From: an uncultured Phycisphaerae bacterium
Lineage (GTDB): Bacteria; Planctomycetota; Phycisphaerae; UBA1845; PWPN01
Assembly (NCBI GenBank): GCA_938005315.1
Contig: CALLOB010000005.1
Coordinates: 88,790 to 152,789 of the forward strand
Reading direction: 5' to 3'
DNA: 64,000 bases
Shown: piece by piece, positions 48,491 to 50,776 of the stretch
How the letters are laid out: each line of letters starts with the position of its first letter
How positions within the stretch are numbered: position 1 is the stretch's first letter
Program-made: the position numbers and the translations under genes
The notes under the pieces: model-generated
What the model saw: only the letters and a program-made list of their open reading frames with translations
Told to the model about the DNA's origin: nothing
Database searches by the model: none

Positions 48491-48618
48491 GCCACGGCGG
48501 GCGGGCCTGAGGCCTTGCCGCCGGCGGCGCGGCTGAAGCCATGACCAGCCGCATCCCGGACGGACTGCACGACCGGCCCGCCGTTTTCGCATGCCGTGGG
48601 GCCGGCGTCGGGCCGATG

Positions 48619-49137
48619 TCACTTCAAAGGCGCCCGTCCGAAGGCGGCGCGCATGCGGTTGGCGTGTTCCCAGAGCTTGTCATCGGCCTTGAGGAAACGG
48701 ATCAGGTGGCCGGTCGAGATCCGCAGGGCCCCTGCGGCATCCGAGACCGCCGCGCGAGCCTCCAGCAGCCGGTCCAGCACATACTGCACGATCAGCCAGT
48801 AGTGCGGGTGACGGGAACTGACCCGCAGCGAGGGGTCGCGGTCCAGAGCCTCGCGGTAGAACTCCGGCTCCGGCGCGTCGGCCGCGACAAGGTTGCGTTG
48901 CGTCAGGGCGATGGCCCGACGCAGGCGACGCAGGGCCCGGGCCCGGTTCTCGTGCTGGGATCTGCTCTCCTCGGCGATGACGATCAGACCCGTGGATTTG
49001 TGCCGCAGACGCACGGCCGAGGAGGTCTTGTTGCGCTTCTGGCCGCCCGGCCCGCTGGCCCGGTAGGTGTCGATGTCGCAGGCCGCCAGAAGGGCGGCAT
49101 CGTCGGACTCCAGCCAGGCGCGGCCCGACCCGCTCAT
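48619..49137 (-). CDS. Peptide chain release factor-like protein (RF-1/GGQ domain, ArfB-related)
   Basis: RASGPGGQKRNKTSSAVRLRH, EESRSQHENR; GGGAG RBS before ATG 49137 (alternative start 49176). Confidence 0.9.
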   Translation of the reverse strand: MSGSGRAWLESDDAALLAACDIDTYRASGPGGQKRNKTSSAVRLRHKSTGLIVIAEESRSQHENRARALRRLRRAIALTQRNLVAADAPEPEFYREALDRDPSLRVSSRHPHYWLIVQYVLDRLLEARAAVSDAAGALRISTGHLIRFLKADDKLWEHANRMRAAFGRAPLK

Positions 49138-49226
49138 CAGCGTCTCCCGTGGGTAAACCGGTTCAGACTCGCCCATATCCGGCCGCCTGGCTTCAGACCC
49201 GCCCATCCACCGGAGTATACCCTCCC

Positions 49227-49573
49227 GGCCGCGGATGCGATCCGGGCGGCCGACCGGACAGGTGTGCTCGAAGTCGCCTTACGATAAGGCCGCCATCGGC
49301 TCAGGTAACCGGGCGGCAGTCGTTTCCGATCCTCCCGGCGGGCACCATCCGCCGATTGCACGACCCGCCCTGTTGAAGTATGATGGGAACAACTCGGTCG
49401 GGCCATCGGTGCTTTTCGGATGGCTGTCCTGCACGGTCGGCCCGCCGGGAACAATCCGGCCATTCCTGATCGCCCGCGCTCTCCGCGACTCTGAACCTCC
49501 CCCAAGCGCGGGCGTTTTTATGCGCCTCTGGTTCAGGGCCTCCTGTACCCCGATTACCTCGTCCGCGACGGCC
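49227..49573 (+). ncRNA. Candidate ~350 nt structured non-coding RNA with pseudoknot (unassigned)
   Basis: Terminal stem, perfect 11-bp and 10-bp helices, a 7-9 bp loop/downstream pseudoknot pairing, TATACC -10-like box at 49216-21; G-U pairs favour the + strand. Confidence 0.5.
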
Positions 49574-49617
49574 AACATGCGATGCGCGGGCCCGTCGCCT
49601 CGCACGGCCGCAGCCGT

Positions 49618-50403
49618 TCAACGCCCATCAAGCCTGTAAAACCGCAGGGCCTCGCGGGTGCTCGACTCGGCGAGTTCCTCGAACGACATGCCGTGAAGCC
49701 CGGCCGCGAACCGCACGGTGTGGACCAGGTTGGCCGGCACGTTGGGGCGCATCCCGCGGACCGGTTCGGGGGACATGTATGGGGCATCCGTCTCGAACAT
49801 GAGCATGGACGGCGGCGTCCGGCGACAGGCTTCGCGCTGCTGGTCGGCCTTGCGGAAAGTGATCACGCCGGTAAACGAGGTTCGCCAGCCCAGCGAGCGC
49901 AACTCGGCGGCCTGGGCCGCGGTTCCGCCGAAACAGTGAAACACCACCGGCCGGCCGACCAGCCCGTGCTCACGGAGAATGCCGACCACGTCGTCGTAGG
50001 CCTCCCGGCAGTGGACGACGACCGGCCGGCCGGCGGTCGCGGCCAGCTCCAGCTGCCGGTGAAAGACGGCCCGCTGCACGTCGCGCGGGCTGAAGTCATA
50101 ATAGTAGTCGAGCCCCATCTCGCCGCAGGCTACCGTCTTGGGGTGCTGCCAGGTCTCGGCCAGAGCGGCCAGCCAGGCCTCGTCGCAACGAATGGCCTCG
50201 TGGGGGTGGACACCGGCGGCGACATACACGCCGGGAAATTTCTCGGCCAGTTCCAGGGCGACGGGGATCTCCCCGGGATGACAGGCGACGGTGATGAGGC
50301 GGGTCACGCCGACCTCGGCCGCCTCGACGACGAGCCGTTGGCGATCGGCCAGCAGCTCGGGGAAGGTCAGATGGCAGTGGGTGTCGATCAGGCTGACGGC
50401 CAT
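49618..50403 (-). CDS. tatD: TatD family hydrolase/nuclease
   Basis: IDTHCHL, GVHPH, GEMGLDY, HCREA, HCF, ETDAPY. Confidence 0.96.
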   Translation of the reverse strand: MAVSLIDTHCHLTFPELLADRQRLVVEAAEVGVTRLITVACHPGEIPVALELAEKFPGVYVAAGVHPHEAIRCDEAWLAALAETWQHPKTVACGEMGLDYYYDFSPRDVQRAVFHRQLELAATAGRPVVVHCREAYDDVVGILREHGLVGRPVVFHCFGGTAAQAAELRSLGWRTSFTGVITFRKADQQREACRRTPPSMLMFETDAPYMSPEPVRGMRPNVPANLVHTVRFAAGLHGMSFEELAESSTREALRFYRLDGR

Positions 50404-50407
50404 CCGA

Positions 50408-50776
50408 TCACCACACGGGGATGAAGGCTTCCAGCACATGGTTGACGACCATGCGCTCGCCCGGTCCGACGGTGATGCCCAGCACGTCGAACCGGCAGGT
50501 GCGGCCCACCGAACCGGTCTGCCGGAGAAACCGGCCGGCGGTCCGGACGATGCGGCGCTGCTTGGCCGGAACCACGGTTTCCTCGGGGGGAATCAGCGGG
50601 TCTTCATGGCGGGTGCGGACCTCCACGAACACCACGGTATCGCCGTCCAGGGCCACGAGGTCGATCTCGCCGGCCGGGCCGCGGTAGTTGCGGGTCACGA
50701 TGCGGTAGCCCAGCGAACGGAGGTGGCGTTCGGCCCGGCGCTCCCCCTCCCGGCCCAGCCTGGCCCGGTCATCCAT
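50408..50776 (-). CDS. yraN: YraN family protein (UPF0102)
   Basis: LGREGE, RNYR, GEIDLVA, VFVEVR, RFDV. Confidence 0.94.
   Translation of the reverse strand: MDDRARLGREGERRAERHLRSLGYRIVTRNYRGPAGEIDLVALDGDTVVFVEVRTRHEDPLIPPEETVVPAKQRRIVRTAGRFLRQTGSVGRTCRFDVLGITVGPGERMVVNHVLEAFIPVW

Follow-up and report, generated by a model that had tools for sequence, protein, structure and literature searches.

A candidate small RNA gene with a near-frozen CU-rich 3' module, apparently restricted to one family of uncultured Phycisphaerae

We analysed a 64,000-nucleotide (nt) stretch of DNA, hereafter the window, from an uncultured Phycisphaerae bacterium (GTDB lineage Bacteria; Planctomycetota; Phycisphaerae; UBA1845; PWPN01; GenBank assembly GCA_938005315.1, contig CALLOB010000005.1, positions 88,790 to 152,789 of the forward strand), and concentrated on the spacer that separates tatD from a gene for a release-factor-like protein with a GGQ domain. 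A sequence-only reading had proposed for this spacer either one large, possibly undescribed noncoding RNA (ncRNA) of ~350 nt, closed by its ends and containing a pseudoknot, or a structured leader of the GGQ gene. Sequence comparison points to a real gene at this spot with a different anatomy: a candidate single-copy, family-restricted small RNA (sRNA) gene whose 5' part varies and whose CU-rich 3' module is frozen. It is probably an independent gene on the plus strand of the spacer. Of the earlier proposal, an undescribed plus-strand ncRNA gene held up on the Rfam searches and on conservation, and the large pseudoknotted form did not. Regulators of this kind are already known, the family itself is without a model in Rfam 15, and we know of almost no regulatory RNAs from Planctomycetota.

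The conserved part of the spacer is a module of ~66 nt (49460-49525) composed of a CU-rich strand, a GC hairpin with a large loop and a U-run. Its parts are as follows.

49460-49470, plus strand: CU-rich single-stranded 'seed', with CCATTCC at 49460-66 and the family consensus CCAUUCCCUUUC; none of the CCATTCC columns varies (n = 27 sequences).
49471-49514, plus strand: GC hairpin with arms CGCCCGCGC(T) at 49471-79(80) and (A)GCGCGGGCG at (49505)49506-14; the arms and 13 loop bases are invariant (n = 27).
49515-49525, plus strand: U-run TTTTT at 49515-19 with the tail ATGCGC to 49525; a T-run lies 3' of the hairpin in 27/27 aligned sequences.

In its RNA form the seed reads CCAUUCC(CUUUC), a strand of 11-14 nt directly 5' of the hairpin. 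The stem has 9-10 base pairs (bp), and the loop, which starts with the invariant UCUCCGCGACUCU and also carries AACCUCCCC, measures 24-29 nt across the family and 24-26 nt in the window (49480-49505). Family-wide, the stem is followed by 5-7 U and then GCGC. In the alignment of 27 distinct copies, 45 of the 77 columns were invariant. When the spacer was compared by BLAST with 40 relatives, most of it aligned only within the genus (76% identity), and 20 of 24 same-family genomes gave an alignment of the ~66-nt core, at 83-93% identity. The host genomes of the aligned copies span 46-71% GC, and the TatD and GGQ proteins encoded alongside share no more than 52-65% identity beyond the genus, indicating that the constraint on the module is much stronger than that on its surroundings. 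In close relatives, conservation starts at the plus-strand promoter and ends directly after the U-run and the tail UUUUUUUGCGC (TTTTTTTGCGC), and the 3' end of the RNA is likely to lie at this U-run and tail, 49515-49525. The TTTTTTGC tail was also seen after unrelated terminators in the clade, where a U-run followed by GC(GC), as in UUUUUUUGCGC, is common (window 49515-49525; L086 1553-1565; the second of two units on contig C3, described below). Terminators of the clade may thus share this tail in general, in which case it would not belong to the RNA as such.

Variants of the loop core were seen in L119, L026 and G020 only. The metagenome contig L119 has CUCUAUCCCCACCUAAG in place of CUCUAACCUCCCCUAAG, with stem and strand unchanged. 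The divergent copy of genome G020 keeps UCUCCGCGACUC and AACCUCC, has its basal pair swapped from C-G to G-C, and differs in the upstream CU-rich strand (CUUCCUCC). The predicted probability of being unpaired was ~0.8 for the loop in most homologues and 0.23-0.90 for the seed across homologues. A search for an internal partner of loop or seed found none beyond shuffled sequences (mean z score +0.24). Pairing of the CU-rich motifs with the purine-rich 5' motifs GCGGAGG and GAGGGAA had no overall support by the same value, and RNAalifold paired GAGGGAA with the seed in one genus.

The element is present once in the genome carrying the window, which is 90% complete, and once per genome in relatives, ruling out a repeat or mobile element. 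A covariance model of the ~66-nt module was run on 32 further genomes of the family and gave a single match each in 27, with 25 scores of 83 bits or more; the weaker matches were the divergent G020 copy (37.8 bits) and a 26-bit match in G008 that resembles a generic terminator. Among 118 genomes from ten other families of the order, a single one gave a match (26 bits), at a terminator after a flagellin gene, and elsewhere in the class the model matched in 5 of 149 genomes at 25-33 bits. Apart from the tandem units of family f23 described next, we rejected these marginal matches outside the family as generic terminators. An exact 21-mer was found in 25 metagenome-assembled genomes of Planctomycetota/Phycisphaerae among 185,579 species genomes, with one further chance match inside a Methylosinus gene, and in 16 metagenome contigs, 11 of them new. 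As far as these searches tell, the RNA gene appears limited to one family of uncultured Phycisphaerae, with only marginal matches beyond it.

Family f23 is another family of the class, in which tandem units occur at L154 1500-1800 (minus strand; G218) and L155 (G224). Each unit consists of a hairpin (CCCCGCCC-GCAA-GGGCGGGG), an A-rich linker, a CU-rich strand and a small ordinary terminator. One unit carries exactly GCCAUUCCCUUUC, identical to the strand of the element studied here, through either shared ancestry or convergence.

No known RNA family was matched when the element was checked against covariance models. Rfam 15 gave no match at the gathering score anywhere in the window; at an expectation value (E) of up to 10, the interval 49050-49750 contained nothing relevant, the only match near the element being chrB-a (E 6.6, 15 bits), outside it; and at E<=1 the 16 homologous loci (40,101 bases) gave no match, including to ar14, RsaE, 6C and raiA. 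That the element is neither transfer-messenger RNA (tmRNA) nor RNase P RNA, as the sequence-only reading had argued, was confirmed: in the same genome, tmRNA (contig C46), RNase P RNA (C73), 6S RNA (C95) and signal recognition particle RNA (C53) all score over cut-off elsewhere. A search of open-access papers and bioRxiv found no description of the element and no described Phycisphaerae sRNA.

Promoter-like sequences favoured the plus strand. Sigma-70-like sites lying 60-330 nt upstream of the core were scored under standard promoter-scan criteria in 37 loci, and were present on the plus strand in 24, on the reverse strand in 6 and in 8.8% of shuffles. Typical sites consist of TGGACA/TTGACG, 17 nt and TATAGT. 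The gene downstream is a convergent tatD in 11 of the 27 loci and variable in the rest, and the hairpin and U-run are there in all 27. Upstream of the module, the window contains the following candidate features.

49356-49384, plus strand: candidate promoter P2, TTGCAC (49356-61), 17 nt, TATGAT (49379-84); transcription start site at ~49391, giving an RNA of ~130 nt.
49192-49221, plus strand: candidate promoter P1, TTCAGA (49192-97), 18 nt, TATACC (49216-21); transcription start site at ~49228, giving an RNA of ~290 nt.
49228-49390, plus strand: weakly conserved stretch that P1 but not P2 would include in the RNA; genus members share ~60-70% identity here and differ by indels of 1, 2, 12 and 13 nt.
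49394-49448, plus strand: SL1, a genus-specific stem-loop with a basal stem of 49394-49403 with 49440-49448; 9 pairs, 100% paired in 3 sequences.

Equivalents of P2 pass the standard criteria in two genus relatives (L009 and L116), the P2 of the window fails them, and the block from P2 to SL1 is near-invariant in three members of the genus. P1 also fails these criteria. Its -10-like TATACC, which the sequence-only reading had noted before the proposed 5' end, is present, and the palindrome GTATAC could instead serve as the -10 (TATACT) of the divergent GGQ gene. Helices drawn by that reading within 49228-49390 were not kept. Two pairs of SL1 change between U-G and U-A, which on the minus strand become C-A mismatches, and the 66-nt 5' domain folds with z -4.24 in sense against -2.25 in antisense. 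Over 27 transcript models, the 5' domains were stabler in sense than in antisense in 22 (mean z -1.44 vs -1.01). The implied RNA is 180-280 nt long in other genera, between which the 5' domain diverges beyond alignment. Its stems are genus-level only, examples being SL1 here, stems that show compensatory changes in a second genus, and a closing stem, GCGGAGG/CCUCCGC, in one further group. In many homologous loci (L010, L011, L020, L024, L025, L023 and L013), two promoter-like sites follow each other at a distance of ~31 nt, the upstream one with a -10 TAAACT and its own -35, the other with TATAGT. The GTAAACT box is kept across genera and could be a regulator site instead.

The explanation of the whole that we favour, with modest confidence, is an sRNA that pairs with ribosome-binding sites; such pairing as the mode of action is itself put forward only tentatively. 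The RNA would be transcribed from its own sigma-70-type promoter, in the genus of the window probably P2 and alternatively P1, and transcription would end at the hairpin and U-run (49471-49519). Its 5' part would evolve freely and its last ~65 nt would remain near-frozen across the family, keeping two unpaired pyrimidine tracts on display, CCAUUCC(CUUUC) before the hairpin and UCUCCGCGACUCU..AACCUCCCC in the loop. These tracts could pair in trans with purine-rich Shine-Dalgarno/start regions of mRNAs and so block translation. Such G-C-rich pairing would need no Hfq, as with the C-rich-seed sRNAs of other Hfq-less bacteria; an Hfq gene was not found in the 90%-complete genome. The 16S ribosomal RNA of this genome has the 3' end GGAUCACCUCCUUUCU, with the tail ..ACCUCCUUUCU, and both tracts resemble it, through ACCUCC in the loop and CCUUUC in the strand, with the seed resembling the CCUUUCU end. 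Judged by this likeness, the module looks like a decoy of the ribosome's mRNA-docking sequence.

Exact complements of the tracts within the genome gave nothing convincing as a target. Start sites had been chosen with the help of a Shine-Dalgarno score, so statistics on Shine-Dalgarno sequences would be circular and were not used. A 12-mer of the seed occurs in 84 of 301 genomes of the class, with ~107 matches against ~64 for the reversed control by hand count; this enrichment is weak, most contexts are unrelated, and the tally includes an unpublished genome (G394); no claim is based on it. In 30 fetched loci with the 12-mer, all from other families of the class, the seed complement GAAAGGGAAUGG was seen by eye a few bases before an ATG in ~9-10. 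Four extra copies of the 12-mer in genome G012 were rejected as not sRNA-like.

The genome carrying the window also has two near-identical promoter-to-terminator units of ~60 nt, ~2 kb apart on contig C3 (66222-66245 and 64253-64276, elements on the minus strand). Each comprises TTGACT, 17 nt, a -10-like box, ..AAGCUUCCUUCUUUCCCAA, a 7-bp hairpin with a AUCCUCCUCC loop, and a U-run. The units share the design of the element, a CU-rich CUUCCUUCUUUCCC strand and a AUCCUCCUCC terminator loop, and appear to be a further, paralogous pair of sRNA genes of the anti-Shine-Dalgarno-like kind.

Several results weigh against an sRNA that acts by pairing, some touching the gene and others its action. A promoter scan of window positions 48600-50500 returned no site, and P2 fits the consensus at 8 of 12 positions only. 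The terminator scan omitted the hairpin, with its loop of 24-26 nt against the usual 3-8, and a loop of that size is atypical for an efficient intrinsic terminator. The 129-nt short form folds with z -1.60 on the plus strand and -1.25 on the minus strand, which is weak thermodynamic support, and the interval 49227-49573 folds better on the minus strand (z -3.20 vs -1.53). With such z scores, thermodynamics alone proves nothing and the case rests on conservation. As to the action, the stem shows no covariation among strong hits, so that sequence rather than pairing seems constrained, and seed pairing would usually need fewer bases than the 45 that are frozen. The complement of the 13-mer of the loop was found in 35 family genomes only in the RNA gene itself (24/35), and in the genome carrying the window, 2,521 predicted start regions gave duplex energies no better than reversed queries did. 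The best-looking target, the start region of a carbamoyltransferase gene, was rejected, its complementarity being kept only within the genus.

The points on the action also suit a protein- or ribosome-binding RNA, in which the invariant stem and 26-nt loop would dock a conserved protein or the 30S subunit and the RNA would serve as a decoy, a scaffold or a ribonucleoprotein component. Stem arms and 13 loop bases identical to the letter across many genera (27 sequences), and strong hits free of compensatory stem changes, fit such a partner at least as well as they fit a seed, and both the failure of the target searches to give a complementary mRNA and the number of frozen bases argue in the same direction. 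For CsrA, which this genome encodes, the expected enrichment is missing: GGA was observed 97 times against 105.9 expected in 25 5' domains (mean z -0.19), and a CsrB/Rsm-type CsrA sponge was rejected. Moreover, the resemblance of both tracts to the anti-Shine-Dalgarno sequence is explained more simply by RNA pairing. We consider docking unlikely as the explanation of the element.

The genes on both sides bear on the remaining alternatives. The spacer (49207-49617, 411 bp) is flanked on both sides by minus-strand genes, and its placement between tatD and a GGQ release-factor-like gene by the sequence-only reading was corroborated by Pfam.

48619-49206 or 48619-49137, minus strand: gene of a stand-alone RF-1/GGQ-domain protein, ArfB/PrfH-like (Pfam RF-1, 2.7e-21).
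49618-50439, minus strand: gene of a TatD-family hydrolase, convergent with the RNA (Pfam TatD_DNase, 7.5e-74; TIGR00010, 230 bits, over cut-off).

The GGQ protein lies under all NCBIfam cut-offs (ArfB 40.7 bits against a cut-off of 100) and is therefore named ArfB/PrfH-like only. Its start is likelier at 49137 than at 49206, with a GGGAGA Shine-Dalgarno sequence preceding 49137. Two copies of an imperfect direct repeat, TTCAGAC(T/C)CGCCCAT(A/C)TCC, occupy 49160-49206; on the minus strand they would encode MGGSEA../MGESEP.., possibly an N-terminal extension or the 5' untranslated region of the GGQ gene. Of 27 loci, 12 have the GGQ gene upstream of the RNA in divergent orientation, 11 have tatD downstream in convergent orientation and 3 have both; in the remaining loci DUF1611, ThuA, GlnRS, FGGY kinase/sugar kinase, aldo-keto reductase and other genes adjoin the RNA. 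The arrangement in the window (GGQ - RNA - tatD) is probably ancestral, and yet the element is probably a gene in its own right, outside the mRNAs of both neighbours. In at least six loci (L014, L022, L024, L025, L040 and L057), tatD is followed on the same strand by a UPF0102/YraN-family (NERD-like) gene, so that a tatD-yraN pair is kept beside the RNA gene.

Ancestral adjacency would give docking a more specific form, in which the ribosome or a translation factor would dock on the frozen module (stem, the 13-nt UCUCCGCGACUCU and AACCUCCCC), and the module, by mimicking the anti-Shine-Dalgarno sequence, would act with the GGQ rescue factor. We rate this as a long shot; if true, ribosome rescue in a planctomycete lineage would have an RNA as its regulator or cofactor. 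A comparison of the GGQ start region with the RNA showed no obvious complement, the start sites being too uncertain.

Transcription in the opposite direction would make the region a structured intergenic segment or leader within a tatD-GGQ transcript on the minus strand, controlling the rescue-like gene. Both flanking genes do lie on that strand, the 347-nt interval folds better there, as given above, and the GGQ gene adjoins in 12 of the 27 loci. Against this, 15 of the 27 loci have no GGQ gene within the ~1.2-1.5 kb fetched on each side and carry other genes instead, and where the gene is present its start lies 262-719 nt from the core with a plus-strand promoter in between. Read on the minus strand, the hairpin has an A-run before it and no U-run after it, the U-G pairs of SL1 are lost, and promoter-like sites are in the minority reported above. 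A minus-strand open reading frame (ORF) from a conserved ATG was also rejected, since it exceeds 60 codons in some GC-rich loci and has only 8 and 14 in the low-GC loci L054 and L035. A minus-strand origin is very unlikely, and the leader proposed by the sequence-only reading did not hold, the RNA being on the opposite strand, divergent from a GGQ gene that adjoins it in fewer than half of the loci.

A coding function is more doubtful still. The module could end a small-protein mRNA or a dual-function sRNA, for example with an ArfA/BrfA-style small ORF running into the terminator, a style that the adjacent GGQ rescue-factor-like gene would suggest, and the frame CGC CCG CGC UCU CCG CGA CUC UAA/UGA through the core does reach a stop within the loop in 26 of 27 loci. 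This frame is, however, closed by a stop 11-12 codons upstream, without a start codon, in 5 loci, and lacks a usable start in many others; candidate peptides of the close relatives L018 and L117 are unrelated. Loop indels between homologues are not multiples of 3. In 15 pairwise comparisons substitutions showed no 3-nt periodicity (p 0.17-0.95), with most indels not multiples of 3, and Pfam gave no match for four ORFs of the spacer.

The single ~350-nt RNA (49227-49573) with closed ends and an H-type pseudoknot is equally improbable, and largely refuted already. The eight complementary segment pairs on which it was built are all in place and fully complementary (4/4, 6/6, 5/5, 6/6, 6/6, 11/11, 10/10 and 7/7), and the 10-bp hairpin among them is real. 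On the plus strand, the interval has a minimum free energy of -154.2 kcal/mol; 5 of 100 dinucleotide shuffles fold equally well, and the z score of -1.53 is not beyond chance. Only two same-genus homologues were found, G001 and one metagenome contig. In their three-sequence alignment with the window, every cell of the 10-bp hairpin is paired (100%) with zero variation, against 54.5% of cells for the 11-bp helix (8 of 11 pairs broken), 60% for the pseudoknot (4 of 7 broken), 46.7% for ACAGG/CCTGT and 75-83% for the end pairings; neither homologue keeps the helix, the pseudoknot or ACAGG/CCTGT intact. Past the U-run, in sequence that is unconserved even inside the genus, lie the positions (49530-49573) that would supply the 3' side of the end pairings and the pseudoknot; half of the partners in the proposed pairings are downstream of the terminator. 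Within SL1, the 3' arm of the 11-bp helix finds a local partner that is better conserved. GCCTTA/TAAGGC and GCCGCC/GGCGGC share two bases, so full formation of both is impossible.

The outcome is a clean candidate sRNA family for testing, single-copy in each genome, with ~40 sequences and an invariant module of 45 nt. No general concept is changed by it, and the exceptional-looking large pseudoknotted RNA is unsupported.

Compared with known systems, the 3' end has the GC-rich 9-10 bp stem and 5-7 U of a canonical intrinsic (Rho-independent) terminator, and differs in its loop, 24-29 nt of invariant sequence here against 3-8 nt of any sequence there. SgrS-type RNAs combine a variable 5' part with a conserved 3' seed and terminator. 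The element likewise conserves mainly its 3' seed and terminator while the 5' part diverges; it differs in having no 5' ORF, another seed chemistry and a host in which no Hfq was found. RoxS/RsaE, 6C and cuckoo/CcsR RNAs pair C-rich regions with G-rich ribosome-binding sites without Hfq, and the 6C RNA of Actinobacteria has C-rich unpaired regions of the same kind as RoxS/RsaE. RoxS/RsaE of Firmicutes (PMC6158497, PMC8216469, PMC5419742) are reported to have C-rich unpaired regions in hosts not reliant on Hfq, which resemble what is seen here. Rfam indicated no homology with RoxS/RsaE or 6C, which have several short C-rich regions on small hairpins, unlike the one strand of 11-14 nt and one loop of 24-29 nt of the element. 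The alphaproteobacterial cuckoo/alpha-r14/CcsR1-4/NfeR1 RNAs (PMC4615179, PMC8034643, PMC10746234) are reported to be likewise promoter-to-terminator sRNAs with pyrimidine-rich anti-Shine-Dalgarno-like motifs (CCUCCUCCC) in unpaired loops, conserved far above the rest of the RNA. They belong to another phylum and gave no sequence or model match (Rfam at E<=10 for the window and E<=1 for the homologues). In contrast to that multi-copy family, the element occurs once per genome, and its motif sits in the terminator loop itself, beside an invariant stem.

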